Shown in pieces: positions 1 to 62,050 of a stretch of DNA of 64,000 nucleotides. The DNA is from Saprospira grandis str. Lewin. Its GTDB lineage: Bacteria; Bacteroidota; Bacteroidia; Chitinophagales; Saprospiraceae. The DNA is taken from NCBI RefSeq assembly GCF_000250635.1, contig NC_016940.1, positions 1,032,995 to 1,096,994 of the forward strand, read 5' to 3'. Position 1 is the stretch's first letter. Each line of letters begins with the position of its first letter. Position numbers and translations under genes: made by a program. The notes below the pieces were generated by a model, which saw nothing but the letters and a program-made list of their open reading frames with translations, did no database searches and had not been told where the DNA came from.

Positions 1-492
1 ATCGGCACTGACCTTGGGCAAGCCCTGGCTAGGACCAAAGCCATAATTATAGAGGCTGAGATAGTCATTGGACAAAACCACCGGCACAAAGGGATCGCCC
101 TCGCTCCATTGGAAATCGCTGCTATCTATGTCGACATAATCTAGAGGGACCGACTGGCAGAACAGCAGGGTAGAAAAACCCAGCTGCGGCACACGGGCCA
201 TCAATTCGTAGCGATTGGAGCGAACGGGAGCCAAATCTTGGCAAAAGCCCTGGGCTCGAATATTGGCAATTTCTTCCTCACTAAAGCTTTTTTCTCCGCT
301 CAGGCCCTCTACCCTTTTTTGTAGGACCAAAAGATTTTCATCGCTAGCGCCATTGGCTAGCGTTTGTACATCCCAGAAAATTTGTAGGCTAAACAAAAGC
401 AGAAAGAGCCCCAAAAAAAGGCCAATAGCCGCTCCCCAAACTTGCCAGGGCGAGCGGCTTTTCCATAATAATTTTTGCAATAAAGGCTTCAT
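1..492 (-). CDS. membrane protein, N-terminal part only (continues past window start); possibly an FtsX/MacB-like permease
   Basis: Minus-strand frame is open from the ATG at 492..490 to the window edge. Translation MKPLLQKLLWKSRSPWQVWGAAIGLFLGLFLLLFSLQIFWDVQ... gives one N-terminal TM helix followed by a soluble domain. The +strand ORF 215..508 on the same DNA is rejected. Confidence 0.45.
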   Translation of the reverse strand, partial: MKPLLQKLLWKSRSPWQVWGAAIGLFLGLFLLLFSLQIFWDVQTLANGASDENLLVLQKRVEGLSGEKSFSEEEIANIRAQGFCQDLAPVRSNRYELMARVPQLGFSTLLFCQSVPLDYVDIDSSDFQWSEGDPFVPVVLSNDYLSLYNYGFGPSQGLPKVSAD

Positions 493-504
493 AGCATTGG
501 CAGC

Positions 505-1440
505 TTAGAGGAAGCGGCGGCGGATCCATTTGATAAAATCCTTGGCCAAATCCTGCTTTTCTTTTTTCATCCAGTCTCCTTCTGGAATCAATTTATTTTC
601 TAGATACTCTCGGGCCTGATTAAAGTCATCGGCCTTGCGGTTAAAGTAGTCAATGGCCTCATCAAAGCGGCTCGCATCGCCAGCAAAGAGCTCCCCAATA
701 TAGCGGAACCGTTGGCCCACCCCAATACTTCCTTTTAGGTCGCTGATGGGTTTTTGTTGCAAGCGGCTCATGAGGTCCGTAGCCTGCTTAAAGACAAAAA
801 GGGCCTCGTATTCGTCCTTATTAGCAGCTGCGGGCTCCTCTTTTGGGGCTTCGACAACAGGCAGCTCTTCTTCTTTGGGCGCTTCCTTTTCTACAATAGG
901 AACAGGCGGTTGTTCTTCTTCTTTGGGCGTTTCTACAACAGGAGTAGCGGGCTCTTCTACTTTCTCTTCTTCTTTTTCGCTAGACAGTTCTAGTTCGGGC
1001 AAAATTTCCTCGGGCAATTGAGCTTCTTCCTCTTTTGCTTCCTCAGTCGCCCGATGGCGTACTGGCTCAAGTTTTTCTTCTTCTAGAGCAGGCTGTTTGT
1101 CTTCTTCCTGAACTTTTTCCTCTACCAGAGGCGGTTCTACAGGAGCTGGAATTTCTTCTTTTGCCTTGGGTAGTTCTGGGGCTTGATTTAAGAAGATTTT
1201 TGGACCTGTTTTTTTAGGCGTTTCTTTTTTGGGGCTTTTGGGCGCTTCCTCTTTTTCTATTTTGGGCTCAGTCGTCAAGGCTGGAGTTTCCTCCTCCTTG
1301 GCCAAGGCCAATTCATAAAAGCCTCTAATTTTTTGTAGAACGAGATCTACCTCTAGTTGACTAATGGGTTGCGATTGCTCGATGCGCTCCAGTAGAATTT
1401 GGAACTGGGCAATCTCCTCTTTTAGGGCTTTAAGTTTCAT
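505..1440 (-). CDS. hypothetical protein with a central Pro/Glu/Lys-rich low-complexity region and a conserved C-terminal domain
   Basis: 311-aa ORF with a structured N-terminal coiled-coil, a PEKE-rich spacer, and a C-terminus ...DEAIDYFNRKADDFNQAREYLENK. No recognisable family. Confidence 0.5.
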   Translation of the reverse strand: MKLKALKEEIAQFQILLERIEQSQPISQLEVDLVLQKIRGFYELALAKEEETPALTTEPKIEKEEAPKSPKKETPKKTGPKIFLNQAPELPKAKEEIPAPVEPPLVEEKVQEEDKQPALEEEKLEPVRHRATEEAKEEEAQLPEEILPELELSSEKEEEKVEEPATPVVETPKEEEQPPVPIVEKEAPKEEELPVVEAPKEEPAAANKDEYEALFVFKQATDLMSRLQQKPISDLKGSIGVGQRFRYIGELFAGDASRFDEAIDYFNRKADDFNQAREYLENKLIPEGDWMKKEKQDLAKDFIKWIRRRFL

Positions 1441-1451
1441 GCTAATTTATT

Positions 1452-2054
1452 TTATGAGCAGCGGTTGGGCTGGTAATATGTTTCGTCAAGGGCAAAAAGT
1501 TCGGGATTTTTTCCCAGTATGTCCTTATAAAAGCACATAATTTCGGCCATATCCTTGGCAATATCTCCAGAAGGGTGAATGACCTTGCCAATTCCCCCTT
1601 CTTTTTTGGCATAATCTAGCCAACCGAGTAAGATAGGTACCTTTGCCTTTAGGGCCACATAATAAAAACCGGTTTTCCATTTGACCACCTTAGAGCGAGT
1701 TCCTTCAGGCTCCATAATAATACAAAGCCGTTCTTGGCCCTCAAATAAATTGGCAATAACGTCTACCATAGAAGGACGCTCCTCCCCTTCTTTTTTGGGC
1801 TTGCGGTTGATCCCAATTCCCCCCATCATCTTAAAAAACCAGCCAAAAGGGGGCCGCATATAATCATCTTTGATGGTGTACTTAATGGGAACGCCCAGCT
1901 CGGCCATAGCGGCCATCGTAATGGGATAGTCCCAGTTGGTGGTATGCGGGGCCGCAATAAGTACGCAGTTGCCTTGGGCCTCTTGGGGAATACTGGGGTG
2001 AATTTTCCAGCCCGCTAGTTTGAGGTAGAGTTGGCTAACTATTTTCTTAATCAT
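1452..2054 (-). CDS. lysophospholipid (1-acyl-glycerol-3-phosphate type) acyltransferase family protein
   Basis: HTTNWD matches the HX4D acyltransferase motif, and EPEGTRS matches the second acyltransferase motif. Confidence 0.6.
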   Translation of the reverse strand: MIKKIVSQLYLKLAGWKIHPSIPQEAQGNCVLIAAPHTTNWDYPITMAAMAELGVPIKYTIKDDYMRPPFGWFFKMMGGIGINRKPKKEGEERPSMVDVIANLFEGQERLCIIMEPEGTRSKVVKWKTGFYYVALKAKVPILLGWLDYAKKEGGIGKVIHPSGDIAKDMAEIMCFYKDILGKNPELFALDETYYQPNRCS

Positions 2055-2142
2055 TGTTTTTATTTTTTTTCAAAAATACAACTAAAAAAAGAGGCTTTTC
2101 GTCAGAGGAGTATATTTAGTAATCATTTAATATCCCCCTCCT

Positions 2143-2658
2143 ATGAAAAACTTATTCTTTCTGGCCCTGGCCCTTCTCGGCCTTGGCCTCTCTTCCTGCC
2201 AAGAAGATAAAGAAGGCTACCTAGAGATTTCAAATATCAAACTACTTAACTATAACGAGTTCGATAAGTCATACTACGGCTATTATGGTCAGTTTTCTTG
2301 GGTAAATTGGGATCCAGAACTGCCCGGAAAAGCAGAAGCGAAATATCCCGATATTTTTGCTCGGGTCTATTTTCGTTATTCTAGCCGTAGAGTAGATACG
2401 ATCGTAAAGGAAACAAGAGTCTTGCATAATTGTCCCCATGGCCAAGAAGTCTACCTCCCCTTACAGAAAATGTCCTTTCCAGATGATACGGAAGCAACTG
2501 TTAGTATTCTGCTCGTAGACCATGATGAAGATAACTATCACAGAGGGATGCACTCCTTTAGGTTTACTCCAGCAGGACTCAAAAGAGACCAAATCGAAAC
2601 CGCCTATATTACAAGCGATGAAAATGGGGTCCTCCGATTTGATGTCAGCTACCACTAA
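2143..2658 (+). CDS. small lipoprotein, member 1 of a tandem paralog array
   Basis: Signal peptide plus lipobox MKNLFFLALALLGLGLSSCQ. The CCCCCTCCTATGAAAAA start context is shared by all four genes. The mature body resembles gene 3. Confidence 0.7.
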   Translation: MKNLFFLALALLGLGLSSCQEDKEGYLEISNIKLLNYNEFDKSYYGYYGQFSWVNWDPELPGKAEAKYPDIFARVYFRYSSRRVDTIVKETRVLHNCPHGQEVYLPLQKMSFPDDTEATVSILLVDHDEDNYHRGMHSFRFTPAGLKRDQIETAYITSDENGVLRFDVSYH

Positions 2659-2708
2659 CATGAGTAAGCAAAAGCTTTTTTAATTAAAAAAACATATCCC
2701 CCCCTCCT

Positions 2709-3248
2709 ATGAAAAATTTATTCTTTCTGGCCCTGGCCCTTCTCGGCCTTAGCCTCTCTTCCTGCCAAAAGGAAGAGGACCTTTCTCCCGCCGCCCCCTG
2801 TACTGACTGTATCGAAATTCTAAATATTCGGCTGCATAATTACATGGAGTTTAAGCTCTATGGTTACTACAACCACGTTTGGGACCATTGGGATAGAGAG
2901 GAAAGCTCTGCAATAGAAAAACGCCCAGACCTCTTTGTTCGCATTAGAGACGACACCTACTCCCAAAGAAGATACATCTATGAGGGAAGCATCTTAGCAG
3001 AGAACGCTCCTAGAGATTCTACCATTTTACTTACTGCCGAAAGCATATTTATTCCCGCCGACTCCTTTCCGAATGCTCGCATTCAAATAATGGATCAAGA
3101 CTATAGATCGAACATAAACCGATGGTATCATGATGAGGTAGGCAATTTTTACTTTAACCCTAGAGAAATTATGGATGACAAAATTTCCCATATCGTCCGT
3201 GGCCAAAGCGATGAAACTCAGATCAGTTTTGATGTTAAATTTCACTAA
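2709..3248 (+). CDS. small lipoprotein, paralog 2
   Basis: Signal peptide identical to gene 1. The mature N-terminus KEEDLSPAAPCTDCIEI is identical at nucleotide level to gene 4. Confidence 0.7.
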   Translation: MKNLFFLALALLGLSLSSCQKEEDLSPAAPCTDCIEILNIRLHNYMEFKLYGYYNHVWDHWDREESSAIEKRPDLFVRIRDDTYSQRRYIYEGSILAENAPRDSTILLTAESIFIPADSFPNARIQIMDQDYRSNINRWYHDEVGNFYFNPREIMDDKISHIVRGQSDETQISFDVKFH

Positions 3249-3262
3249 CTCCCCCCCCTCCT

Positions 3263-3799
3263 ATGAAAAACTTACTCTTTTTAACACTGGCCCTTATCGG
3301 CCTTGGCCTCTCTTCCTGCCAAAAGGAAGAAGCTCCATTAGCCCCAGTAGAACTTACTGGCATTACCTTATTAAACTATAATGAATTTAAGTCCGTTTAT
3401 TCGTACCAATATGCTACCTACTCCCGGGAAAGCTGGGATGAAGATGTTCCTGGACGGCCCCAAGAGAAATATGCCGATGTTTTTGTCCATGTTTATTACC
3501 GCCGTTCTCCTTATCAGGTAGATACACTGCTAAAAGGAAGAAATATCCTACATAATTGGCCCTATGACCAAAGTGCCAACATCCCCATCAGTCCTATAGC
3601 ATTTGAAACTGGAACAGAAGCAATGGTTGAAATCCGACTACTAGACTATGATGAAGCGGGTGCCCATGAAGTGATTGACACTTTTCTTTTTTCTATGGCA
3701 GCAGTCAGAAGAAACCAAATGGAAACGGCCTATCTTTCTACCTATAGCCATAATGCTAATACTGGCAGTAATATCCGCATAGATGTCAACTATAATTAA
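3263..3799 (+). CDS. small lipoprotein, paralog 3
   Basis: Lipoprotein signal MKNLLFLTLALIGLGLSSCQ. The body is similar to gene 1 (LLNYNEF..., ...KYADVFVHVYYRR...). Confidence 0.7.
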   Translation: MKNLLFLTLALIGLGLSSCQKEEAPLAPVELTGITLLNYNEFKSVYSYQYATYSRESWDEDVPGRPQEKYADVFVHVYYRRSPYQVDTLLKGRNILHNWPYDQSANIPISPIAFETGTEAMVEIRLLDYDEAGAHEVIDTFLFSMAAVRRNQMETAYLSTYSHNANTGSNIRIDVNYN

Positions 3800-3820
3800 A
3801 AAAACATATCCCTCCCTCCT

Positions 3821-4360
3821 ATGAAAAAATTACTCTTTTTAACACTAGCCCTTATCGGCCTTAGCCTCTCTTCCTGCCAAAAGGAAGAGGACCTTTCTCC
3901 CGCCGCCCCCTGTACTGACTGTATCGAAATTAGCAGTGTTCAATTACTTTACTATACGCATCTGGCCCCCTATTCTTACTATGGCCCTAGAGATTACTGG
4001 GATAGATATGCGACTAACCCAGAAGACCGCGCCCCCGATCTTTATGTAGCAATAACGGAGGTAGTCGAACGCGGCTATGACGCAACTACCCTTTGTAGCT
4101 CTCCTCCCATACAAAACTGCCCCTCTCTTCCAGGTTTACCAATGGATCTTCCCAAAGTGTATATCGATAATGATAGCGAATATGAGTACGCCATCTCTGT
4201 GATAGATGAGGATGTAAGTGAAGGAGAACATTACAACCGAGGTATGGCCCACTTTTATATTACAGCTACTGAGCTCAAGCGGACAAAGCCAGACTCCCTT
4301 ATTTTGGAAAGCCCTCAATACAATAATGCAGCCCTTCTCCTACTACTAAAATACCACTAA
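3821..4360 (+). CDS. small lipoprotein, paralog 4
   Basis: Signal peptide identical to gene 3. The first ~17 mature residues are identical to gene 2, so the family is mosaic. Confidence 0.7.
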   Translation: MKKLLFLTLALIGLSLSSCQKEEDLSPAAPCTDCIEISSVQLLYYTHLAPYSYYGPRDYWDRYATNPEDRAPDLYVAITEVVERGYDATTLCSSPPIQNCPSLPGLPMDLPKVYIDNDSEYEYAISVIDEDVSEGEHYNRGMAHFYITATELKRTKPDSLILESPQYNNAALLLLLKYH

Positions 4361-4367
4361 GCCCTAA

Positions 4368-4401
4368 GTCCCTGCATTACATTTAAACAGGGGCTTTTTT
4401 G
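4368..4401 (+). terminator. putative rho-independent terminator after the lipoprotein array
   Basis: Stem tccctg...cagggg followed by cttttttgg. Confidence 0.4.
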
Positions 4402-4703
4402 GCCCATAAAAAAAGCATCCTGGCGCTGCTACACCAAGATGCCCAATAGGCTTACACCTATTCTCATGAAAAATCTACTAATTGTAAGGGTAAGCTGCTT
4501 TATTTCTTACCCTTTGCTGCTTAGCTAAGATAAGGATTTATTCTTAATAGGCCCTTATTTTAAAAGAACTTTATCATTTCCATTAAAAAGCTAATAATCA
4601 ATATTCTTACAAGCAGCCCAGAAGCCCTATTGACAGCGGAGTAAATCCCCCTTTTCCAATATTTTATTTTAATTTTGTGCCCTAACCATCAGACCTCTCC
4701 TCT

Positions 4704-5846
4704 ATGTCGGCACTCTATATCCATATCCCCTTTTGCAAACAAGCTTGCCATTATTGCAATTTCCACTTCTCTACTTCCCTAAAATATAAAGGGCAGATGC
4801 TTGAAGCCATTAGCAAAGAGCTGCTCCTGCAAAAAGATTATCTCCAAGGCGCCGAACTACAATCGGTCTATTTTGGCGGAGGTACCCCCTCCCTGCTCTC
4901 CGCCGCCGAGATTAACCAACTCTGGTCCATTATCGAAACACATTACCCCCTCGGCCAAAATATGGAGGTGACCCTAGAGGCTAATCCAGATGATATGTGC
5001 CTCGATAAACTCCGTAGCTATAAGTTACATACGCCTATCAATCGCCTCAGCATCGGCCTGCAATCCTTTTTGCCCGAAGAACTGAGCTATATGAACCGCG
5101 CCCACTCCGCAGAAGAAGCCGAAAACTGCCTGGCCAACGCCCTGGCCGTGGGCTTCAACCAACTTTCTGTAGACCTTATCTATGGCGGCCCCTTCCTCTC
5201 TGATGAGGATTGGCGAAAAACAATCCGAAAACTCTTTGCCTTTCAGGTCCCTCACCTCTCCGCCTATGCTCTCACCCTAGAACCCAATACCCCCCTCGAA
5301 CACCTTATCCGACGAAAGAAGTTGCCCACCCTAGATGAAGATAAAGCCGCCCGACATTTCGAAATCCTCCTCGAAGAATGCCAACTTCACAACTATGAGC
5401 AGTATGAGATTTCTAATTTCTGCCGCAATGAACAGTATGCCCAACATAATTCGGCTTACTGGAAAAGTCGCCCATATCTAGGCATCGGCCCCTCGGCCCA
5501 TAGCTTCAATGGCCATAGCCGACAATGGAATATCGCTCATAATATGAAGTATATCAAGGCCCTAGAAAGTAATGAATTGCTCTTCGAAATAGAGGAGCTC
5601 TCCCCAATAGAACAATTTAATGAGCTGCTCATGACCCGCCTGCGCACCAAATGGGGCCTCTCGCTCTTAGAGGTGGAACAACGCTGGGGAACAGCCACTA
5701 AAACTCAATTGCTGCAAACTATTCAGCCCTTTATTCAAGATGATTTGGCCCAGCTCCAAAATGAACATGTCTATCTCAGCAATGCAGGCAAACTCCTTAG
5801 CGACCATATTATTGCCGAGCTGTTTCTAGAGGATAGCCCTGCCTAA
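4704..5846 (+). CDS. hemW: radical SAM heme chaperone HemW (HemN-like, oxygen-independent coproporphyrinogen oxidase family)
   Basis: N-terminal LYIHIPFCKQACHYCNF CX3CX2C radical-SAM motif; length 380 aa; HemW-like C-terminal domain. Confidence 0.8.
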   Translation: MSALYIHIPFCKQACHYCNFHFSTSLKYKGQMLEAISKELLLQKDYLQGAELQSVYFGGGTPSLLSAAEINQLWSIIETHYPLGQNMEVTLEANPDDMCLDKLRSYKLHTPINRLSIGLQSFLPEELSYMNRAHSAEEAENCLANALAVGFNQLSVDLIYGGPFLSDEDWRKTIRKLFAFQVPHLSAYALTLEPNTPLEHLIRRKKLPTLDEDKAARHFEILLEECQLHNYEQYEISNFCRNEQYAQHNSAYWKSRPYLGIGPSAHSFNGHSRQWNIAHNMKYIKALESNELLFEIEELSPIEQFNELLMTRLRTKWGLSLLEVEQRWGTATKTQLLQTIQPFIQDDLAQLQNEHVYLSNAGKLLSDHIIAELFLEDSPA

Positions 5847-5864
5847 GTTTTCTTTTCTTCTGCT

Positions 5865-6201
5865 TTTTTGGGGCTGCCCCTGCGGCCTGTGGCCTTGGGT
5901 CGGGCCATTGCGCAGCTCGCAGGTCTGCTCGGCCCTTCGGCGCTTGCAGCGCCTCGGTCTGCCGCCTGCGGCGGCCCTGCTACAGCCCCTCAGCCGAGGC
6001 GCTGCGCGCCTTTGCGGCGGCTTCGCCGCCTGCTATACGCAAAACGGACCGCCAAGTTCTTGGCGGTCCGTTTCTATTTGGCCTAGGGGCCTGAAAGGGT
6101 GCCGCGAAGCGGCAGACCCAGCAGGCGAAGCCTGCGCAGGGCCGAGCAGACCTGCGAGCCCTGAAAGGGCCCGGCCGCCAAAGGCGGCAGGCCCCAAAAA
6201 A
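5865..6201. repeat. GC-rich REP-like palindromic element (composite, two inverted units)
   Basis: Contains the family cores gcgcagctcgcaggtctgctcggccc, ggtctgccgcctgcggcggccctgctacagcccctcagcc, and the inverted ggccgagcagacctgcgagccc with ggcaggccccaaaaaa. GC content is far above the flanks. Confidence 0.8.
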
Positions 6202-6203
6202 TC

Positions 6204-7652
6204 CTACTTCAACTGCCCTAAAGCATCTAGCAAATAAGCCCAGAATTTCTGTACCGAACTGATCTGTACCCGCTCATCAGGAGAATGCGCCCCCCGAATG
6301 TTGGGCCCAAAAGAAATCATCTGCATCTCCGGATAATGACGGCCCAAAATACCACACTCCAAACCCGCATGACAGGCATTTACATCGGGCTCCTCCTCAA
6401 AACGATCAAGGAAAAGCTGACGCATTTGGTCCACCAAACTAGAAGCCGGCAAAGGCTCCCAACCCGGATAACTGCCCGACAACTGCGTGTCGGCCCCCAA
6501 TAGTTCATACAATCCCTGAATGCTCTCGGCCAAAGCCCATTTCTCCGTGTCTACGGAGCTCCGACAAAGGCAAAGCACACTGTATTCCCCATTTTTGACC
6601 AGCAAACGCGCCAAGTTATTAGAGGTTTGGACCAAGCCCTCTATCTCGGGACTCATTCTGAAGATGCCGTTGGGCGTAGCCAATACCGCCGATAATAGGG
6701 CTTTTTGCTCCGCTTCTCCCAACTTGATGGCCGGTAGAGCTACCTCCTCTGCAGTGAAGCTAAGGCCGGGGTCAGTGCTGGCATATTCCGCCTTGAGCTC
6801 GGCCTCCAAAGCTGCTAGTTGTTCTTTGCATTGGGCCGCTTCTGCCTTGGGCAAAACCACAATAGCCCAGGCCTCTCGGGGAATCGCATTGCGCAATCCT
6901 CCCCCATCAAATTGGGCCAAAGACAAGGGAGAAAGCGCCCGAAGAACACGGGCCAATAATAGGTTGGCATTGCCCAAACCCTTAATAATATCCATACCCG
7001 AATGTCCACCACTCAAGCCTTTCAAACTGATTTTTAAGGCCAAATCTTCTTCTGCCCCTAAGGCCATAGGCGTATAGCTGCCCGCTACCGAGATATCTAC
7101 CCCACCAGCACAACCAATAGTCAATTCTTTGTCGTCTTCTGTGTCCAGATTGAGCAAGTAATCTGACTTTAACCAGTTGGGGCCCAAGCCCAAAGCACCC
7201 GTCATCCCCGTCTCTTCATCTATGGTAAATAGGGCCTCCAAAGGCGGATGCGGAATATCCGTACTGGCCAATAGGGCCATAATAGCCGCCACGCCAATGC
7301 CATTATCTGCCCCCAAGGTGGTGCCCTTGGCCTTTACCCAATCCCCCTCTACATACATCTCGATACCCTGGCTCGAAAAATCAAAATCGGTATCCGCATT
7401 CTTCTGATGCACCATGTCCAAATGGCTCTGTAAAAGAATAGTGGGACGGTCCTCTAGACCTGCTGTGGCTGGCTTTCGGACCAAAATATTCCCAACTTCA
7501 TCCTCCTCGGCCACTAATCCCAATTTGGATACATATTCACGCATAAATGCACATACCGCCTCCTCTTTTTTAGAGGGCCGAGGCACCGCATTTAGCTGAC
7601 TAAAGGCCTCCCATAATGCTTTTGGGGCCAATTCTGCTACTTTCTGACTCAT
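6204..7652 (-). CDS. pepD: aminoacyl-histidine dipeptidase (Xaa-His dipeptidase, peptidase M20C)
   Basis: 482 aa, HLDMV metal-binding motif, overall PepD-like organisation. Confidence 0.75.
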   Translation of the reverse strand: MSQKVAELAPKALWEAFSQLNAVPRPSKKEEAVCAFMREYVSKLGLVAEEDEVGNILVRKPATAGLEDRPTILLQSHLDMVHQKNADTDFDFSSQGIEMYVEGDWVKAKGTTLGADNGIGVAAIMALLASTDIPHPPLEALFTIDEETGMTGALGLGPNWLKSDYLLNLDTEDDKELTIGCAGGVDISVAGSYTPMALGAEEDLALKISLKGLSGGHSGMDIIKGLGNANLLLARVLRALSPLSLAQFDGGGLRNAIPREAWAIVVLPKAEAAQCKEQLAALEAELKAEYASTDPGLSFTAEEVALPAIKLGEAEQKALLSAVLATPNGIFRMSPEIEGLVQTSNNLARLLVKNGEYSVLCLCRSSVDTEKWALAESIQGLYELLGADTQLSGSYPGWEPLPASSLVDQMRQLFLDRFEEEPDVNACHAGLECGILGRHYPEMQMISFGPNIRGAHSPDERVQISSVQKFWAYLLDALGQLK

Positions 7653-7740
7653 GATTATATAGTATATTTGTTAGGCCAAAAAGCTAAGGAAAATTTAGAT
7701 AATGCCAAGGGATAAGCCCTATTTCTATCTGGCTTTTGCC

Positions 7741-8215
7741 TTTTATTTCGACGAAGGGCTTACCGTAATCCTTAGGAGGGCTTACTCTACCCCTTTCAAG
7801 GGGTTCAGCTAGCCATACCGAGGGCTTGTCGTAGTCCTCCCGAGGGGTTCAACTAGCCATACCGAGGGGGTGCTCTACCCCTCTCAAGAGGTTCAGCTAG
7901 CCCTACCGAGGGGTTACTCTACCCATCTCGAGGGGTTACCTTAGCCCTCTCGAGGGGTGCTCTCCCCCTCTCAAGGGGTTTAACTAGCCCTCCCGAGGGG
8001 ATACGCTAGCCCTCTCAAGGGGAGCAACTAGTACTACTGATGGGGCACTCTAGCCCTCCCAGGGGTTTGCCTTAGCCCTCCTGATGGGGTACGCTAGCCC
8101 TCTCAAGGGGGGCACCTAGCCATACCGAGGGGGTGCTCTCCCCCTCTACAGGACTTCCCCTGATCCTTCAGAGGGTCGTTCTTAGTCCTCAGAGGGATTC
8201 ATGCCCCCCCAGAAC
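7741..8215. repeat. degenerate tandem array of about 20 units of ~22 bp, each with a ccctc(t)cgagggg mini-palindrome
   Basis: Visible units include ctagccctctcgaggggttacc, ctagccctcccgaggggatacg and ctagccctctcaaggggagcaa. Non-coding. Confidence 0.8.
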
Positions 8216-8224
8216 TTTAGTTAA

Positions 8225-8440
8225 AGAAGCCCTAAAGAGGACCTAAACAAGTCCTAGCGAGGACTAGGGGCCAATCAAAAGAGGGCTTGGGCAAGCCCTA
8301 AAGACCATTTAGTCTATAGCAATTGAGGACTTGCCTAAGTCCATTCGAGGAGGTAGTAAAATGGAAGCGAGGACTTGCCTAGGTCCTGCGGAGGACCTAG
8401 GCAACATCAACGGAGGACCTATGAAAGTGCTACTGAGGGG
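8225..8440. repeat. hairpin-rich spacer with repeated gaggac..gtcctc stem-loops
   Basis: Repeats such as gaggacctaaacaagtcct and gaggacttgcctaagtcc / gaggacttgcctaggtcc, plus agggcttgggcaagccct. Confidence 0.6.
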
Positions 8441-8470
8441 GTAGAGTAATCCAAATGGCCAATTATGGGG

Positions 8471-8735
8471 CTCTTCAGGATTTTGTGTATTAGAATAAAA
8501 TTTGGGCCTTTAGCTTGTTGGGATTTAGCCAATAGTCGCCCAGGGACAAGCCCCTAGGCTAATCCAATGGAGTCAGCCCTCTTCGAGGGCCTCAACTGTT
8601 GATATACAAGGCCTTGTTCAGTTGTTATCGCAGAGAAAAACCTTATCCAAAGGCCCTCTTTAGAGGGCTGTCTGAAAAAGCTAGCCTAGGGGCTTGTCCC
8701 TAGGCAGCAAAAAGGAGAAACACAAAATTTTAAAC
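8471..8735 (+). mobile_element. 265-bp MITE-like element with terminal inverted repeats, copy 1
   Basis: About 90% identical to 43453..43716. Outer ends ggattttgtgt ... acacaaaatttt; inner inverted repeat tagtcgcccagggacaagcccctaggc ... gcctaggggcttgtccctaggc. No ORF. Confidence 0.65.
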
Positions 8736-8830
8736 AGACTCCAATTACAGTCTAATTAGTAAGATCTAGCTAAAAGCCCCCTTCTTTTATTTCTAAGATA
8801 AAAAGCAGACCTTGGGCAAAAATCAGTCAT

Positions 8831-10102
8831 ATGCCACAGCTTATCCGCTTTCTTATTTTGCTTTGTTTTCCCTTTATTCTTTTTGCTCAGCAGCCCTTGC
8901 GTTTGGTCGATCAACAGCTAGAACAACTGGTCCCTTTAGCCAATGGAGACTGGGGCTGGAGACCATTTTTAGAACTACCAACTACTTTAAAAACAGTAAC
9001 GGGCCAGGGGGAAGACATTTGGGCCATTAGTTTGGCCAATGAACTATTGCACTATAATAGAAGTCGAGATTACTGGGAAAACCTAGGCCAAATTGAAGGC
9101 CTTCCGGCCCTCATTCAAAGGAGTTTCCTCTATAAGGGGCAGCTGTATTTTCAATCTGGGGCCCTACTCTACCGTCTAGAGCTAGAAACTGAGGCCCAGC
9201 CAACTGTAGTCAAAAGAGGACTACCACTGCTGCTATCCAACTGGAGCTATCTGCCCAATCAGGGCCGTTTTTGGGCCATGCAATCTAGTGGGGCGCCCAT
9301 CTTTTTTGAGCCAGAGAGTGGTGTGATTGAACGGCCCAAAAAAACCTGGTTTAGGAATTTTGCTCGGGGGCAAAGCCAGGCCGAGGGACAACTTTGGCCC
9401 ATAGATGCAGAGCATTTTTTATACTTTAGTGTAGGGGCCCAAGAGCTCTACCTCCTCAATATGGCCAATTATGAAGCCTATAAATTGGGGCCCGTTCAGG
9501 GCATACAACCCAAGGCCGAAGTCCTTAGTCTCAATGGCCCTAAGCTTAAAAGCTTTCTTCCGCCAACGGCCAGCCGTTTGTATTGGGGTAAAGGCCTGCG
9601 AGGAGGCCGAATTAGCTGGTGGCAGCACCCTAGTCCAAAAATTGACCACTTTGAGCTAGAACGTAAGGAGGGAAGCAACAGCTCCTGGCTGATTGTCGGC
9701 AGCCTTAACGCCTATAATCCCCCCCATCAGGCAGGCTTTCATGCCCTAGATGATAGTCGAAAAAGGGGGAAATCAACGAGCTACCGCCTACTAGCGGTTA
9801 ATCCCTGGGGGCATAAGCGCTATTTACAAGAAATTTGCTTGGGCCCAGCCTGCCCTAAGGTCCAATTAGGTCCCAATATTTTATCGGCCCAAGAAGATTT
9901 ACGGCTCTATTTATCGGCCTTAAAGGGAGAATGGCTGAAAATAAAATGGAAAAGGGGCGGTAAAGTCGTTCAAAGCCAAGAAATCTATCTGGATTTACCC
10001 ACATATCAATTAACTTTGCCCGGACAGGCAGCGGGTCATTATGAGCTGTCTATTGAAAATGCCGACAACTGCCAGCGATTTCAGTTGTTTTATGGTTTTT
10101 AG
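8831..10102 (+). CDS. secreted hypothetical protein
   Basis: Signal peptide MPQLIRFLILLCFPFILFAQQ; 423 aa; no family recognised. Confidence 0.55.
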   Translation: MPQLIRFLILLCFPFILFAQQPLRLVDQQLEQLVPLANGDWGWRPFLELPTTLKTVTGQGEDIWAISLANELLHYNRSRDYWENLGQIEGLPALIQRSFLYKGQLYFQSGALLYRLELETEAQPTVVKRGLPLLLSNWSYLPNQGRFWAMQSSGAPIFFEPESGVIERPKKTWFRNFARGQSQAEGQLWPIDAEHFLYFSVGAQELYLLNMANYEAYKLGPVQGIQPKAEVLSLNGPKLKSFLPPTASRLYWGKGLRGGRISWWQHPSPKIDHFELERKEGSNSSWLIVGSLNAYNPPHQAGFHALDDSRKRGKSTSYRLLAVNPWGHKRYLQEICLGPACPKVQLGPNILSAQEDLRLYLSALKGEWLKIKWKRGGKVVQSQEIYLDLPTYQLTLPGQAAGHYELSIENADNCQRFQLFYGF

Positions 10103-12159: not shown

Positions 12160-12300
12160 TTTTGGGGCCTCCTGCCTACGGCAGGCGCTACGTTTCGCAG
12201 CTCGCAGGTCTGCTCGGCCCTTCGGCGCAAAGCGCCTCGGTCTGGCCTTCGGCCACTGCTACACATCGCTAGGCCAGTCCTCCCTTCGGTCGTCCTCTAG
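12160..12300. repeat. GC-rich REP-like element
   Basis: cgcagctcgcaggtctgctcggccc core. Confidence 0.75.
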
Positions 12301-25962: not shown

Positions 25963-26023
25963 AGACTAATTTATATAGATAGGCGTTGGAGAAAGAGCTT
26001 CAAAAGAATGTTTATTTTATTTT

Positions 26024-26160
26024 TTTGGGGCCTCCCGCCTGCGGCGGGCGCTACGTTCCGCAGCTCGCAGGTCTGCTCGGCCCTGCAGCGCTTTCAGCGC
26101 TTTGGTCTGGCCCTACGGGCCACTGCTGCACATCGCTAGGCCAAAAGCGCCTGGCCCCAC
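26024..26160. repeat. GC-rich REP-like element
   Basis: ggggcctcccgcctgcggcgggcgctacgttccgcagctcgcaggtctgctcggccc. Confidence 0.75.
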
Positions 26161-36030: not shown

Positions 36031-36169
36031 AAAGCTCTTGATCTAGATTTTGGGATGCTTGGGGCCCTCTTTAAGGAAAGGGCTCAGAAATGGCGAAAAT
36101 ACGAACAAAGCCATTATTTTTGTAGGCCTTAGGGCTTTTTTCGGTTCAAGGGATGAATTCTTCTGTTTT

Positions 36170-36375
36170 TTTGGGGCCTCCTGCCTACGGCAGGCGCTAC
36201 GTTTCGGGGCTCGCAGGTCTGCTCGGCCCTGCGCGGGCTGCGCCCGCTGGCTCTGGCGCTTCGCGCCACCCCTCCACATCGCTAGGCCGATCAAAAACTC
36301 CCTTTGGTCCTTGAAAGGCAGCCTTTGGCTGCCCAAAAGCTCGCTTTGCTCGCCCTGCAAACTGCTTTTTTGCTC
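36170..36375. repeat. GC-rich REP-like element
   Basis: ggggcctcctgcctacggcaggcgctacgtttcggggctcgcaggtctgctcggccc. Confidence 0.75.
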
Positions 36376-36709: not shown

Positions 36710-39475
36710 ATGCGACCATTAAAATTTATTTGGCTGAGCATCAGCCTACTGTTTCTTTTCGCCGCTTGTAAGACCAAAGATGGGGCCACCACAGGGCTGG
36801 GCAAGGCCTACCATAATGTAACTGGCCGCTACAATGCCTATTATAATGCAGGCCTCTTGGTCGATGAAAGTTTTAAGAGCTTGAATCAGGCACATCGAGA
36901 CAACTACAATCAGTTGCTGGCCCTTTATCCCTATGCCGCAGCAGAATCGGGGCAGGCGGTTTCTCCAGCCTTAGATAATGCCATTAAGAAATGTGCCATC
37001 AATATTGAGCTGCACCGCCCTAGCCATTGGGTAGATGATAGTTATTTTTTGGTTGGGCAGTCAGAGTTTTTGAAGCAAGAATATGAGAAATCTGCGGAGA
37101 CCTTTAAGTACATTGTAGACAAATACAATCCCGATAAGGCCATTTCGGCCATGACGCCTGATGAACGCAAAGCTTATAAGAAAAAAGAGAGGGCAAAAAA
37201 GAAGAAAAAGAAAAAGCGGAGAAAAAAGCGTCGTCGGAAGAAGCGCAGAAAAAAGCGTTCTAAGAAGAAAAAAACAGAGAAAAAGGCCGCTGAGGAAGAA
37301 GATATTAGTGAGTTAGACCCTCCCTCCTATTTTCTCAAGCATCCGCCTGTGCGTTATGAGGCCATGCTTTGGTTGGCCAAAAGTTATGTAGAATTGGGCC
37401 GTCATGATGAGGCCGGAACCTACCTTCGTTTGTTATTGGAAGATGGTCGGGTGCGCCGCAAAATCAAGGCCGAGGCCCATGCCGTTTTAGCCCATAGTTG
37501 GTTGATGCGCAAAGAATATGAAAAGGCAATTCCAGAATTGGAACAAGCCATAGAACTGACCAGAGGCAAGCGAAAAAAGAACCGCTATGTCTATGTTTTG
37601 GCGCAGCTTTATGAGCAGCAGGGCCAAAACAAACTAGCCATGGATACCTATAAGCGGGTGCTTCGTTTACGCCCCAAATATGAGATGGAATTTAATGCTC
37701 GTTTGAAAAGAGCAACCAATGCAGCTTCGGTAGAAGACCGAAAATTCAATCCAGAATACGCCCTTAAGCGTATGCTGAGAGAAGGCAAAAATGCCGAATA
37801 CAAGGACCAGATTTACTTTGCTTTGGCCCAGGTACAATTTAGAGCTGGCAGTGAAGAAAATGGTATTTTGGCCCTAAAACAAGCCATGGCCAACAGTCCA
37901 GAAGGTAGTTTCCAAAGAGCAGAAGCCGCCTATATGTTGGCAGAACTATACTACAAGCGCAAGGAATATATTCCAGCCTACAACTACTACGACACCACCA
38001 GCAGAAGCATGCAAAAGGCCGATGAACGTCTGGCCGCAGTAACTGCCCGAACGCAGCAGCTTAAGGACTTGGCGACTAATATGCAAACCTATGAGCTCAA
38101 AGACAGCTTATTGATGGTGAGCAATTGGCCCTATGAAAAGCAGCGGGAATGGGTGCAGCAAGAGCGTAAAGAAGAACTAGAAGCAGCCAATGCCAGCCAG
38201 GACAAAAAGCCTGCGGCAGGGCCTTCCGTCATCAATGCCAATAAAATGGCAAAATCTAATTTTGCGCTTTACAATGCTAGCCAGCTCAAGCGTGGGGAGC
38301 GTGACTTTAAGAAGCGTTGGGGCGATCGTCCTTGGGCCGACAACTGGCGGCGCAGCAGTGGCGATGGCTTTGATACAGAAGGGCCAGATTTTGCTAGCAA
38401 TGAGTTGCCTCCCGTTACCGAGCAAGATGTGAGTAATTTTCTCAAAAAATCGGGCGTCCCTGCAGATGAGGCCAGCAAAAAGGCCGCAGAAAAAGAGCTC
38501 AGAGATGCCCTATTTATGGTGGCGACCCTTTACTATGAGCGTTTGGGAGAAAATCAGTTGTCGCTTAATAAATTTAAGGAATTGCAAGAGCGCTTTCCGG
38601 GACATCCTAGAGAACTAGAGGCCTTATTTAGCATGTACAACATTGCGGGCGCAACTGGCCAAACGGCCCTAGCAGCAGAATGTAAGCGGCGGATTTTGGA
38701 CCAATATGCCGATTCGGATATTGCCAAATCATTGCAAGATCCCAACTTCCTCAATGCCAAAGAGAAAGAACTCAAGGCCATCAATGCAGACTATGAGCGG
38801 ATTTATGCCATGATTCGGGCAGGAAAATCAGAAGCGGCCTATGCTGATCTAGAAAAAGTGGCTAAAAAATATGGGGCCAATAATCCCCTAAAAGCTCGTT
38901 TTGCCTTATTGGGCGCCATTTGTCAGGGCGGCATGCAGGGACAAAAGGCCTATGTACAAGCCCTACGAGCGGTGGTCACTAGCTTCCCCAATACAGATGA
39001 AGAGAAAAAGGCCAAAGAAATGATTGCCATTTTGACCGGAGAAGAGGTTAAAGGCGGCGGGAAGAAGCCTATTGCCGCAGGAGAAACCGATGAAGAGCTC
39101 AACAAAACCTTTGAGAATGATTTGGCCCAGGGCCACTACATCCTCATTAGTTTTGACAATCCCTCGGCCAAGGTCAATAGCTTTAAGGGAGCAATAAGCA
39201 ACTACAATAAAAAATATTATAGCCTACTTCGTTTGAATGTATCGAGCCTGATGTTGGATGGTAAATTTCCTACCCTTATTGTTCGTAAGTTCAAAACGGG
39301 TAAAGAGGCCCAAGAATACTATAAAACCGTAGAAGGAAACAAAGAGTTTTTGGGCGAAGATGCGCCAGCGCATCAGGTCTATTTTATTGGTCAGAATAAC
39401 TACCGAACCATTTTACAAAAGCGCAATTTTGCCGATTACAAGCGCTTTTTTGCGCAGACCTATCAGAATAACTAA
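36710..39475 (+). CDS. TPR-repeat lipoprotein with an internal poly-Lys/Arg tract (SprE/PorW-like architecture is a guess)
   Basis: Lipoprotein signal MRPLKFIWLSISLLFLFAACK. 921 aa with multiple TPR-like repeats. ~35-residue tract KKKKKKRRKKRRRKKRRKKRSKKKK encoded by repetitive aag/aaa/cgt DNA. Confidence 0.5.
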   Translation: MRPLKFIWLSISLLFLFAACKTKDGATTGLGKAYHNVTGRYNAYYNAGLLVDESFKSLNQAHRDNYNQLLALYPYAAAESGQAVSPALDNAIKKCAINIELHRPSHWVDDSYFLVGQSEFLKQEYEKSAETFKYIVDKYNPDKAISAMTPDERKAYKKKERAKKKKKKKRRKKRRRKKRRKKRSKKKKTEKKAAEEEDISELDPPSYFLKHPPVRYEAMLWLAKSYVELGRHDEAGTYLRLLLEDGRVRRKIKAEAHAVLAHSWLMRKEYEKAIPELEQAIELTRGKRKKNRYVYVLAQLYEQQGQNKLAMDTYKRVLRLRPKYEMEFNARLKRATNAASVEDRKFNPEYALKRMLREGKNAEYKDQIYFALAQVQFRAGSEENGILALKQAMANSPEGSFQRAEAAYMLAELYYKRKEYIPAYNYYDTTSRSMQKADERLAAVTARTQQLKDLATNMQTYELKDSLLMVSNWPYEKQREWVQQERKEELEAANASQDKKPAAGPSVINANKMAKSNFALYNASQLKRGERDFKKRWGDRPWADNWRRSSGDGFDTEGPDFASNELPPVTEQDVSNFLKKSGVPADEASKKAAEKELRDALFMVATLYYERLGENQLSLNKFKELQERFPGHPRELEALFSMYNIAGATGQTALAAECKRRILDQYADSDIAKSLQDPNFLNAKEKELKAINADYERIYAMIRAGKSEAAYADLEKVAKKYGANNPLKARFALLGAICQGGMQGQKAYVQALRAVVTSFPNTDEEKKAKEMIAILTGEEVKGGGKKPIAAGETDEELNKTFENDLAQGHYILISFDNPSAKVNSFKGAISNYNKKYYSLLRLNVSSLMLDGKFPTLIVRKFKTGKEAQEYYKTVEGNKEFLGEDAPAHQVYFIGQNNYRTILQKRNFADYKRFFAQTYQNN

Positions 39476-42236: not shown

Positions 42237-42977
42237 ATGAAAAATCAAAAAAAGGAGAAGCGTTTAGCCATGAATCGTCGTTTCATCAAGGCCTTTAAAG
42301 CCTTAGAGGAAAAAGGGGATATTGTCCCCAATAGCCACGATAAAGGAATGACCAAACTCTCTTTGCTCTTTTGGGACAAAAAAGGAAACGGACATCTGGT
42401 CCGCGCATTTCTCAACCCCCAAAGTAGCCGCTCTATCGATTTTGATAAAGCCAGCCGCTTTTGCGAAGAATTTGGCGTCAATAAGGATTATCTGCTCCAA
42501 GGTAAAGGCCCTATGTTTGGCGAGGAAGATGCTCCCGCCTTCGCCAATGGCGAATTAGCCTCCGATTATGGATATGGCTCCCAAATTCTATATTCTAGCC
42601 AAGCCGCTTTTGCTAGCTCGGCCCTAGGCATAGATTCCTATGAGGAAGGACAGTATTTTAGCCTGCCCGGCCTCTCTCAAGGCGATTATGTCGCCTTTAC
42701 CATTAGTGGTGACTCTATGCAACCCACCCTTAGTAATGGAGATTTGGTGATCTGCCGCCCTCTAGAAGGTATCGAAAAGGTGCAGGAAAATGAAGTCTAT
42801 GCCATCGTCAGTAGCCATGGCGTCCAAGTTAAACGTATCCAAAAGGTGCTTAATAAAGGCCGCCTTACCCACCTCAAACTCATTTCTGATAACTACCTAG
42901 AACATGATCCCTTTATGGTGGAGGTCGCTGAAGTACGAAAAATTATGAAGGTGGACCGAAAAGTAACCGCCCTCTAA
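42237..42977 (+). CDS. S24-family (LexA/UmuD/phage-CI-like) peptidase domain transcriptional regulator
   Basis: C-terminal FTISGDSMQPTLSNGDLVICRP...VKRI carries the Ser-Lys self-cleavage domain motifs. Confidence 0.6.
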   Translation: MKNQKKEKRLAMNRRFIKAFKALEEKGDIVPNSHDKGMTKLSLLFWDKKGNGHLVRAFLNPQSSRSIDFDKASRFCEEFGVNKDYLLQGKGPMFGEEDAPAFANGELASDYGYGSQILYSSQAAFASSALGIDSYEEGQYFSLPGLSQGDYVAFTISGDSMQPTLSNGDLVICRPLEGIEKVQENEVYAIVSSHGVQVKRIQKVLNKGRLTHLKLISDNYLEHDPFMVEVAEVRKIMKVDRKVTAL

Positions 42978-43055: not shown

Positions 43056-43299
43056 TTTTATTCTCGACTTAGAGCCGTTATAGCCCTTGCTTTCCCCCTT
43101 TTTATCGTCCTATCCCCTCCTTTAGTCTTTGGTTCTACTCATTTATTCTAGCTATCTAGTAGTTGTACTCCTCTAATACAGTAATTTACTGCTTAGATGC
43201 AGTAGCTGTACTGCTCGCATGCGGTCCTTTACTGTATACTAGTGGTAGTCAAAGTCCTTTATATAGGTTCTGGAAGTCCATGGTATAGGTTGTAGGACC

Positions 43300-43445
43300 C
43301 CAAATAGACCTCCCTAGATCTATCCTATAAGGTCTATAGACCTACCTCATACAGTATAGAAACCTACCCAATACAGTTCAGCACCTACCTCATGCAGTAT
43401 AAGAACCTACCTCATACAGTATAGGAACCTACCCGATGCAGTTCA
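43300..43445. repeat. tandem array of about 6 degenerate 22-bp units (acctacc[tc][cg]at[ag]cagt[at][tc]ag[ga]a)
   Basis: Visible units include acctacctcatacagtatagaa, acctacccaatacagttcagc, acctacctcatgcagtataaga and acctacccgatgcagttcagaa. It lies directly upstream of MITE copy 2. Confidence 0.75.
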
Positions 43446-43452
43446 GAAGGGA

Positions 43453-43716
43453 CTGTTCAGGATTTTGTGTATTAGAATAAAATTTGGGCCTTTAGCTGCT
43501 TAGGATTTGGCCAGTAGTCGCCTAGGGACAAGCCCCTAGGCTAATCCAATGGAGTCAGCCCTGACAAGGGCCTCAACTGTTGATATACAAGGCCTTGTTC
43601 AGTTGTTATTGCAGAGAAGAACCTTATCCAAAGGCCCTCTTTAGAGGGCTGTCTGAAAAAGCTAGCCTAGGGGCTTGTCCCTAGGCGCAGGAAAAGGCAA
43701 ACACAAAATGTTAAAC
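43453..43716 (+). mobile_element. MITE-like element, copy 2
   Basis: About 90% identical to 8471..8735 over its full length, with the same nested terminal inverted repeats. Confidence 0.65.
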
Positions 43717-43735
43717 CGTCTCGCATTTGCATCTA

Positions 43736-43822
43736 GAGGCGGCGAAGCCGCCGCAGGGCCGAGCAGACCTGCGAGCTGCGCAATGGCCCGACCCGAGCGA
43801 AGCGAGTGGGCAGCCCCAATAA
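43736..43822. repeat. GC-rich REP-like element (single unit)
   Basis: Contains ggcggcgaagccgccgcagggccgagcagacctgcgagctgcgcaatggcccgacccgagcgaagcg, ending gggcagcccc. Confidence 0.75.
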
Positions 43823-43949
43823 AATAATCCTCCCCAAAAAGCGGAGCTAGGCAGCAAAGACCCTATCTTCAACGTATTAGAAACAACTGGGAAAAGCTAG
43901 CCCAACCGAGAGAATGCACCCCATTTCCCTCCACTGATAATTATCTGCT

Positions 43950-46670: not shown

Positions 46671-46745
46671 GGAGGATGATGGGTTTCGAACCCACGACCT
46701 CCAGAACCACAATCTGGCGCTCTAACCAACTGAGCTACACCCTCC
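46671..46745 (-). tRNA. tRNA-His (GTG), second identical copy
   Basis: Sequence identical to 46490..46564. Confidence 0.85.
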
Positions 46746-56706: not shown

Positions 56707-56711
56707 GTTTT

Positions 56712-58210: not shown

Positions 58211-58213
58211 GAA

Positions 58214-61500: not shown

Positions 61501-61551
61501 CCCTCTTCTTCGGCGGCTGAATTTAGGGAGTAGCCGCCTAGCTGGGAGACG

Positions 61552-61628
61552 GTTTAAAATTTTGTGTGCGCCCTTTCCTGCGCCTAGGGACAAGCCCCTA
61601 GGCGACTATTGGCCAAATCCCGAATAGC
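61552..61628 (-). mobile_element. internally deleted (solo-TIR) inverted copy of the MITE-like element
   Basis: gtttaaaattttgtgt..gcgcctagggacaagcccctaggcgactattggccaaatcc is the reverse complement of the two ends of the 265-bp element, joined with the ~190-bp core missing. Confidence 0.55.
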
Positions 61629-62050
61629 TTCCCCCGCTTTACAAATGCCGTTTCACAATTTCAGAATAGCTTGCCGCAACTGTAAGATGCTGTTTTGCAA
61701 TTTCAGAATAGCTTGCCGCAACTGTAAGATGCCGTTTTGCAATTTCAGAATAGCTTGCCGCAACTGTAAGATGCCGTTTTGCAATTTCAGAATAGCTTGC
61801 CGCAACTGTAAGATGCCGTTTTGCAATTTCAGAATAGCTTGCCGCAACTGTAAGATGCCGTTTTGCAATTTCAGAATAGCTTGCCGCAACTGTAAGATGC
61901 TGTTTTGCAATTTCAGAATAGCTTGCCGCAACTGTAAGATGCTGTTTTGCAATTTCAGAATAGCTTACCGCAACTGTAAGATGCTGTTTTGCAATTTCAG
62001 AATAGCTTACCGCAACTGTAAGATGCTGTTTTGCATCTGCAGAATAGGGC
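61617..62050. repeat. 42-bp tandem repeat array, about 10 units
   Basis: Unit tttcagaatagcttgccgcaactgtaagatgc[ct]gttttgcaa. Nine perfect-phase copies at 61659, 61701 ... 61995 plus degenerate end units. Variants ctg/ccg and cttgccgc/cttaccgc cluster by position. No spacers, so not CRISPR. Confidence 0.85.

Follow-up and report, generated by a model that had tools for sequence, protein, structure and literature searches.

Positions 1,032,995 to 1,096,994 of the Saprospira grandis str. Lewin contig NC_016940.1 (64,000 nucleotides of the forward strand, here called the window) contain tandem arrays with a period of about 22 bp, each lying beside a copy of a conserved module. What are these arrays, and why do they stand next to the module? 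A preliminary description of the window had read them as iterons, operator arrays, or sites for a repeat-binding protein. We favor, with moderate confidence, a different answer: the arrays are minisatellites in a family of composite, noncoding, intergenic repeat elements of S. grandis that are associated with a MITE (miniature inverted-repeat transposable element) of apparent IS5 type. Terminal inverted repeats (TIRs), target site duplications (TSDs), a filled and an empty version of one site, and rapid change in unit number point to nonautonomous mobile DNA, and the composites presumably have no cellular function.

Arrays on one side of a conserved module

The association between arrays and module extends well beyond the window. 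The 20-nt hairpin arm of the module matched 60 loci, all of them in S. grandis DSM 2844, and one stray Rhizobiales contig. The sample of DSM 2844 loci is seeded on the module hairpin, and its members are cited here by L numbers. The window strain and DSM 2844 are ~94% identical, and L050 is the ortholog of window positions 1 to 9749. BLAST with the module identified 72 module-related copies in 61 DSM 2844 loci and the window, and these fell into two classes. Copies that start at module position ~70 ("core plus tail") had no 21/22-bp array nearby. Among the 27 DSM 2844 copies with the 5′ end (GGGACTGTTCAGGATTTTGTGTATTAGAATAAAATTTGGGCC...), an array ended 0 to 40 bp upstream in 20 and lay within 350 bp in 3 more; six 5′-truncated copies also adjoined arrays. 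For no copy did the 700 bp beyond the 3′ end hold an array. The periods next to modules were 21, 22, 42, 43, 84, and 126 bp, with 2 to 17 units of 87 to 100% identity, at no fewer than 26 loci. Composite sites number about 30 and are intergenic; no copies were found on plasmids. We conclude that a variable array joined to a conserved module, as the preliminary description had proposed, is a genome-wide arrangement, and that the further composites it had suggested looking for exist at ~30 sites. It had also held that modules without arrays, together with arrays without modules, would indicate a coincidental juxtaposition. Both occur: L008 and L020 carry the module without an array (L011 has a single unit), and L068 and L025 carry an array without the module. 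Formally this would count as coincidence, yet the juxtaposition is far from coincidental.

Beyond the core-only members of the module family lies a different conserved region, built of ~100-bp tandem units (TTAGTCCCTCAACTTTTTCTTGGG...GAAAAGGAGGTATTAGG), and the two together form another composite repeat family (L001, L004, L007, L014, L024, L030, L031, L035, L037, L041, L043, L052, and L053). Two loci of DSM 2844 also hold genuine clustered regularly interspaced short palindromic repeat (CRISPR) arrays, at L007 43-2636 and L024 2225-7988, with the 36-nt repeat ATACTAAACCCATTGCAGGCGAAGCAGCATTGAAAC. In both, a core plus tail copy lies 39 bp after the last, intact CRISPR repeat, in the order array then module. 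The flanks of L007 and L024 are homologous, so the two cases probably represent one event.

The window itself contains three arrays rather than two, each adjoining the same end of the module. Counting substantial (multi-unit, high-scoring) arrays, the 64 kb hold three arrays and three module copies, paired in 3/3 cases in identical relative order. Tandem Repeats Finder (TRF) and autocorrelation confirmed the ~22-bp arrays described directly upstream of both full module copies. For array 1, TRF reported a period of 22 bp at 7776-8147 (15.3 copies, 63% match), with higher-order periods of 44 bp (8.5 copies, 74%) and 88 bp (4.1 copies, 76%). The autocorrelation of 7741-8215 was 0.62 at lag 44, 0.58 at lag 88, and 0.56 at lag 22; for shuffled sequence the 95% maximum was 0.33. 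The array is thus real, but ~17 units are clear in 7741-8215, not the ~20 first counted. The gaggac/gtcctc hairpins said to follow array 1 are likewise present, but the stretch that holds them (8216-8466) is itself periodic, with an autocorrelation of 0.54 at lag 44 versus a null of 0.37. Since the periodicity is retained, array 1 continues in degenerate form, with ~33 units, to the start of the module at 8467. Its final unit is inverted (GGGGTAGAGTAA), 8438-8452 being an inverted match to 7779-7793. Array 2 (TRF 43340-43442; period 22 with 4.3 copies and period 43 with 2.4 copies) is also real, with ~4.5 clear units in 43340-43445 instead of ~6. Part of its left arm, 43223-43290, matches 43371-43409 in inverted orientation, and the same layout is seen in L025 and L045. 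Array 3 lies, on the minus strand, directly upstream of the truncated module copy at 61620..61543, and its unit nearest the module is of the ancestral GCTATTCG...GTGAAACGGCATTTGTAAAG type. Coordinates are collected in Table 1.

The module and its ends

The module is a MITE: it has TIRs and TSDs, is 130 or 275 bp long, is noncoding with no open reading frame (ORF), has no Rfam match, and is absent from L068, the ortholog of L023. Its ends are 21-bp inverted repeats (GGGACTGTTCAGGATTTTGTG ... CACAAAATTTTAAACAGTCTC) that agree at 15 to 17 of 21 positions at every full copy. Read inward, the 3′ TIR (GAGACTGTTTAA) is identical at 10 of 12 positions to the TIR of the Porphyromonas gingivalis elements ISPg4 and MITEPgRS (GAGACTGTTGCA; PMC4596501). 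The transposase family, assigned by TIR similarity only, is probably of the IS5 type. Exact TSDs of 7 to 8 bp flank 3/20 full copies: L011 (CTATTCGG; 8/8), L028 (AAATCCC), and window copy 1 (CCAATTA). As a control, 380 mismatched flank pairs were compared, and no match among them reached 6 bp.

Two forms of the module were found. The short form (~130 bp) has one perfect 22-bp hairpin, GCCTAGGG-GCTTGT-CCCTAGGC; it is complete in L022 and L049 and truncated in L058 and window copy 3, which lacks the first ~52 bp, including the 5′ TIR. In the long form (~275 bp), a palindromic core of ~145 bp is nested between two inverted copies of the short-form hairpin. Window copies 1 and 2 are of this form and share ~92% identity; the core of copy 1 is enclosed by 22-bp inverted arms at 8538-8559 and 8684-8705. 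The inverted arms of the core are invariant, with 0 compensatory pairs, so a covariation test for RNA or DNA structure is uninformative. At the gathering threshold Rfam reported only two tRNAs in the window, and nothing credible appeared at an E value of ≤10 in 7600-8850. The tRNA genes are on the minus strand at 46490-46563 and 46671-46744, 107 bp apart, and have identical Rfam scores.

The motif CCAATTRT stands directly 5′ of TIR-like sequence in three contexts (CCAATTGTTAGGGAATTGTT, CCAATTAT|GGGGCTCTTC, and GCCAATTATTGGGAACTGTTC). Its sites are the start of the left end (LE) in 9 loci, window positions 8459-8473, and the 3′ flank of L057. The motif could represent a target preference, or else it could belong to the true terminus.

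No ORF of ≥40 amino acids is present in 7653-8755. Periods of 22, 43, and 44 bp shift the reading frame, which excludes a general coding role, and the unit that we call e-type has stop codons in all six frames. Protein-coding repeats were accordingly rejected: no ORFs run over array 1, and the open frames of array 3 (99 to 161 amino acids) are a mechanical result of a 42-bp unit that is stop-free in three frames. Elsewhere in the window, 37208-37269 holds a 27-bp tandem repeat (AAGAAGAAGCGCAGAAAAAAGCGTCCT; 2.3 copies) whose period, a multiple of three, means that it may be coding.

Table 1. Arrays and module copies in the window, with strand and the features that define them
Feature	Position	Strand	Description
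Array 1a	7741..8215	+	22-bp units (44-/88-bp higher order) with a CCCTC-N4-GAGGG mini-palindrome per unit; S22 superfamily; TRF, autocorrelation
Array 1b	8216..8458	+	Degenerate continuation of array 1; GAGGAC/GTCCTC hairpin units, 22/44/88-bp periodic; autocorrelation
TSD of module copy 1	8459..8465 (left), 8741-8747 (right)	+	CCAATTA; exact flank match
Module copy 1	8467..8741	+	Long-form MITE; 5′ TIR 8467-8487, 3′ TIR 8721-8741
Array 2, left arm	43150..43339	+	Degenerate, partly inverted (foldback-like); weak 43/22-bp periodicity
Array 2	43340..43445	+	22/43-bp units ACCTACCTCATACAGTATAGGA / ACCTACCCGATGCAGTTCAGA; S22 superfamily; TRF, alignment to L061 units
Module copy 2	43449..43722	+	Long-form MITE; TIRs 43449-43469 and 43702-43722; inverted arms 43520-43541 and 43665-43686
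Module copy 3	61543..61620	-	Truncated short form; shell fragment GGATTTGGCCAATAGTC, single hairpin 61582-61603, tail with 3′ TIR 61546-61566
Array 3	61645..62047	-	42-bp unit × 9.6, 97% identical; S42 superfamily; TRF

Unit families and array turnover

The array units fall into at least three diverged superfamilies. In S21, a position-by-position alignment of unit types a, c, d, and e (12 loci) gives a 21-bp unit. Its T2, GTCTGG (positions 5 to 10), A16, and C18 never change, and variation is found in the second half; judged from this conservation, the GTCTGG core could be a site of protein binding. Ten S21 loci share a 62-bp left end, or leader (CCAATTGTTAGGGAATTGTTAAAAATGGAAATAATGTAACAAAATGAAAAAGGGCAAAAG), with a sharp homology boundary. 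No leader common to the 22-bp arrays of the window was found. These arrays, 1 and 2, belong to S22. They had been described as unrelated in sequence, but each aligns over the full 43/44-bp dimer to the unit of L061 (shuffle p < 0.005 each), and they are therefore distant relatives. Array 1a is related to the arrays of L016, L022, L050, and L061. S22 arrays tend toward a foldback-like form with an inverted arm. S42 includes window array 3 and occurs in both orientations relative to the module (inverted in L010 and L044). Clear palindromes are confined to the units of array 1; the arrays otherwise consist of direct repeats, some with an inverted arm.

In three S22-type regions (L025 1-470, L045 2085-2527, and window 43223-43340), inverted units form two arms that join at a near-perfect palindrome, CCCCAAAATAGACGTCCTAGGACGTCTATTTTGGGG. 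The foldback of L045 begins just after an apparent tRNA 3′ end (GGTTCGAATCCC...), which is followed by a hairpin and a T-run.

Three candidate relationships were tried and rejected. The units resemble the 21-bp TIR by eye (GTTCAG, CTATTCG...ATTTGTG), and local alignment of 17 unit types against shuffles gave a best p of 0.097 for their derivation from it. The leader is not significantly related to the module (p = 0.08 and 0.39). CTAG enrichment is no clue either: the tetranucleotide is not rare in the genome (observed/expected, 1.06) and is only ~2.4-fold denser in composite regions.

Each locus carries its own homogenized unit variant, with the ancestral form in edge units and with blocks of identical variants. 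Such blocks mark recent local expansions, and the pattern is a signature of concerted evolution. Unit number, which the preliminary description had proposed comparing at orthologous loci, does vary. The intergenic region of array 1 is 814 bp long in the window, and the orthologous region of DSM 2844 (L050) is 550 bp long, shorter by 264 bp, or 12 units. A metagenome contig (L068) is the ortholog of L023, with flanks 92% and 87% identical. It has the leader and three heterogeneous units, 47 bp in all, and no module, whereas L023 of DSM 2844 has 17 homogenized units and the module at the same site, 632 bp in total. L023 and L068 are one filled and one empty version of the site. Paralogs differ as well: the modules of L005 and L015 are 1.1% apart, and their arrays have 2.6 and 16.3 units. 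Unit number shifts 3- to 6-fold between strains and between paralogs. We conclude that the arrays are hypervariable minisatellites, that is, variable-number tandem repeats (VNTRs). Six Logan contigs (L062 to L067), which are all the public short-read contigs with the window genes at 43950-44531 and 60368-61270, end 110 to 160 bp upstream of the gene. Since they end where the repeats start, the elements probably break assemblies, and these contigs are uninformative on empty sites of composites 2 and 3.

Another repeat family is abundant in the window. This GC-rich, hairpin-rich family, which resembles repetitive extragenic palindromic (REP) elements and has the core GCAGGGCCGAGCAGACCTGCGAGC, has more than 20 intergenic sites in both orientations, often beside composites (e.g., 5895-6203, 12160-12284, 26023-26147, 36169-36293, 43715-43850, 56708-56832, 58060-58235, and 62150-62296). 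At 2132-4400, four tandem paralogous small genes with lipoprotein-like signal sequence starts (MKN/KLFFLALALLGLGLSSCQ) follow one another at intervals of ~560 bp; the DSM 2844 ortholog either lacks this block or carries a replacement.

Explanations weighed and known systems compared

A composite consists of a spacer-less array with a base period of 21 to 22 bp and higher-order periods of 42 to 44, 84 to 88, and 126 bp, a conserved left end of ~62 bp (the leader) in one superfamily, and a MITE of 130 or 275 bp whose side and polarity are constant. If the arrays are minisatellites of a MITE-associated composite family, the MITE would move, or would recently have moved, in trans by means of a transposase encoded elsewhere, making TSDs of ~8 bp. 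Its parent would be an IS5-family (or other DDE) transposase gene flanked by GAGACTGTT...AACAGTCTC. The arrays would grow, shrink, and homogenize in place by slippage or unequal recombination, and such turnover would produce locus-specific unit variants beside conserved flanks.

Several observations weigh against this account. No autonomous parent insertion sequence (IS) was found in the ~550 kb sampled, a biased ~11% of the genome. The sampled loci contained no inverted TIR pair around an ORF and no multicopy ORF; the one two-copy ORF encodes an RHS-repeat protein. TSDs are absent in 16/20 full modules, mostly copies whose 5′ TIR abuts an array; these may have propagated as entire composites, or array turnover may have removed their TSDs. 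In all three TSD-bearing copies the array lies outside the duplicated site and hence is not within the mobile unit, unlike in the BrickBuilt elements of P. gingivalis discussed below. The clear TIR pair bounds the module alone, and a weak TIR-like stretch in the leader (GGGAATTGTTAAAAAT) is only marginal (p about 0.05 in a position-specific test). The relatedness of module copies does not follow array family (p = 0.39); a module phylogeny that tracks array family, which would have meant movement of the composite as one piece, was rejected. The account also leaves without explanation the constant placement of arrays at the 5′-TIR side, the invariance of GTCTGG, spaced at 21 bp, among S21 units (p = 0.026 by position shuffle), and a two-helical-turn period common to three superfamilies that have no detectable mutual similarity. 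On account of the polarity, the shared period, and the GTCTGG core, a role in protein binding or a mechanism of homing keeps a small probability. Replication direction was considered as a source of the insertion polarity and rejected: the 64 kb contain composites of both orientations, and no clear switch shows in the noisy GC skew.

These difficulties bear on a possible, though in our view doubtful, alternative of targeted juxtaposition, in which the arrays and leader are an older, independent repeat family to whose edges the TIR-bounded MITE homes with a fixed polarity. The arrays might serve as a landing pad, a bound protein or a DNA structure might attract the MITE, or the palindrome might destabilize the repeats and drive their expansion. 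This alternative refines the composite-family reading and does not exclude it. In its favor, besides the position of the array outside the TSD in 3/3 copies, are L056, where an inverted array has the module 11 bp beyond its leader end; L011, where the module interrupts a single-unit element and has a perfect TSD; and L068, with its leader and short array but no module. Near-identical modules (2.5 to 4% distance) adjoin unrelated arrays. Taken together, the array outside the TSD, the layouts of L056 and L011, and module relatedness that does not track array type suggest that the TIR-bounded module can insert alone beside preexisting array elements, with its 5′ TIR always facing the array. There are precedents: IS elements that target REP repeats and bacterial interspersed mosaic elements (BIMEs) are documented (PMC1525189), and an association of IS5-type ATR MITEs with direct repeats named REP2 has been noted (PMC4596501). 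Against it, no common target sequence is visible at the array/module junctions, the similarity of units to the TIR is not significant, and most array-abutting copies have no TSD; moreover, the seeding of the sample on the module hairpin means that a count of module-free arrays cannot be read from it. The link to expansion is based on one locus (L023 versus L068), and L005, L011, and L012 are contrary to it, having the module but only 1 to 2.6 units. A stronger proposal, which we think unlikely, is that minisatellites of two-helical-turn period, irrespective of unit sequence, have edges that the MITE recognizes or to which it is recruited, always with the 5′ TIR facing the array, or else that the palindrome drives expansion and homogenization of neighboring repeats. 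Edge recognition would operate through DNA structure, a bound protein, or mimicry of TIR subsites by the arrays. If true, either would be an undescribed mechanistic coupling of a bacterial transposon and a minisatellite.

A domesticated regulatory element, acting through composite promoters or noncoding transcripts that modulate neighbors and tuned in output by unit number, seems improbable to us. Every copy is intergenic, the unit core is conserved, all three window copies face the start of a codirectional gene, and segments of BrickBuilt drive bidirectional transcription in reporter assays (PMC4596501). Over all composites, however, orientation relative to the downstream gene shows no bias (13 codirectional, 16 opposed), there is no Rfam family, and a sigma-70-type promoter scan, which does not cover Bacteroidota-type promoters, stayed at background. 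The neighbors have no common function: among those checked, no gene family recurred, and they were ordinary (M20 peptidase, S24 peptidase, extracytoplasmic function [ECF] sigma factor, deacetylase, DUF4249, and proteins sorted by the type IX secretion system [T9SS]). The same survey tells on the iteron or operator arrays of the preliminary description, controlling replication or transcription through a dedicated protein such as the adjacent S24-type regulator, an explanation to which we attach very little probability. The two-helical-turn period, the short palindrome in most units, and the invariant GTCTGG of S21 are as it predicts. But no rep, initiator, or partition gene adjoins any of the ~30 dispersed intergenic loci, there is no recurrent partner gene or orientation bias, and the S24 gene (42237-42977) adjoins only one copy; its proposed link to the arrays is not supported. 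Units differ between loci and among the three window arrays, unit number changes 3- to 6-fold, and the arrays are accompanied by TIRs and TSDs, as in mobile DNA. Such dispersal and such locus-specific units are out of keeping with iterons of the plasmid type. Hardly credible at all is a CRISPR-like or other guide-RNA array with the module as its leader. The array does stand beside a conserved leader-like module, and a core-only copy lies near two genuine CRISPR arrays; yet those two cases have the same flank and hence count as one event, units are contiguous without unique spacers and up to 97 to 100% identical, the 21- to 22-bp period is too short, and no cas gene was present among the flanking genes checked.

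If the composites are indeed MITE-associated minisatellites, the loci that hold them are neither replication nor regulatory sites but selfish, rapidly evolving repeat DNA, and should be annotated accordingly. They would account for breaks in short-read assemblies in intergenic regions of S. grandis, and the arrays would be usable as VNTR markers for strain typing. Their polarity and sequence-independent period may show how a transposase chooses its target, or how a palindrome destabilizes adjacent repeats.

Direct repeats of ~22 bp, or two helical turns, are known from plasmid iterons (R6K has seven of 22 bp) and from the 22-bp transposase-binding sites in the ends of Tn7 and Mu. Iterons occupy one origin beside a rep gene and have one sequence, and transposon ends have three or four sites each; the S. 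grandis arrays have up to 17 to 33 units at ~30 loci, with locus-specific sequences. BOX of Streptococcus pneumoniae (boxA-boxB(n)-boxC) is a modular, multicopy, MITE-like intergenic repeat with variable internal units and conserved ends. It differs in that boxB is one conserved 45-bp unit at all loci, and it belongs to another phylum. We know of no nested palindrome or polar MITE junction reported for BOX. REP sequences and BIMEs are intergenic arrays of short palindromic units, and mobile elements insert specifically into or beside them (PMC1525189, PMC3333891). Their units alternate in orientation and they are linked to Y1 transposases (REP-associated tyrosine transposases [RAYTs]), whereas the arrays described here are direct repeats, mostly not strong hairpins, with a TIR-bounded neighbor.

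The closest system is BrickBuilt of P. gingivalis (Klein et al., Mob DNA 2015, PMC4596501), in which a spacer-less 23-nt minisatellite of 1 to 22.8 units stands between a leader and a tail. Its TIRs are of IS5 type, and it occurs in 19 copies per genome, always intergenic, with strain-variable unit number; the variable positions lie mostly in the second half of the unit, and some copies have bidirectional promoter activity (PMC4596501). The S. grandis composites appear to be of this already known kind but, by unit sequence, of a different family, in a new lineage. Both systems are found in the phylum Bacteroidota and have spacer-less repeats of about two helical turns between distinct conserved flanks, and the TIRs of the S. 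grandis module appear to be of IS5 type too. Both are multicopy, intergenic, and strain variable in unit number, with nesting of MITE within MITE and assembly breaks, and S21 units, like those of BrickBuilt, conserve the first half more than the second. In contrast to the single 23-mer of BrickBuilt, there are at least three unit superfamilies here (21, 22, and 42 bp), and no unit family matched that 23-mer (AGAYCATARTATCCTCTCRTRTG) above shuffles (p ≥ 0.17). The counterpart of the tail is in itself a whole MITE: it has the two TIRs, a TSD of ~8 bp, and a palindromic core nested inside. The BrickBuilt array lies between TIRs, with TSDs of 2 to 5 bp; here the array is outside the duplicated site in copies with a TSD.

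A second P. gingivalis element, MITEPgRS/MITE464, has 41-nt tandem repeats and shares the TIR GAGACTGTTGCA with its presumed parent, ISPg4 of the IS5 family (PMC4596501). Its repeats are comparable to the 42-bp arrays, and its TIR tip agrees at 10/12 positions. The likeness to MITEPgRS and ISPg4 is limited to the TIR tip, and the sampled S. grandis DNA has no IS5-family transposase with such a TIR. With the composites, elements of the BrickBuilt/MITEPgRS kind would reach beyond Porphyromonas into a distant class of Bacteroidota, which suggests that two-helical-turn minisatellites on IS5-type MITEs recur across the phylum.

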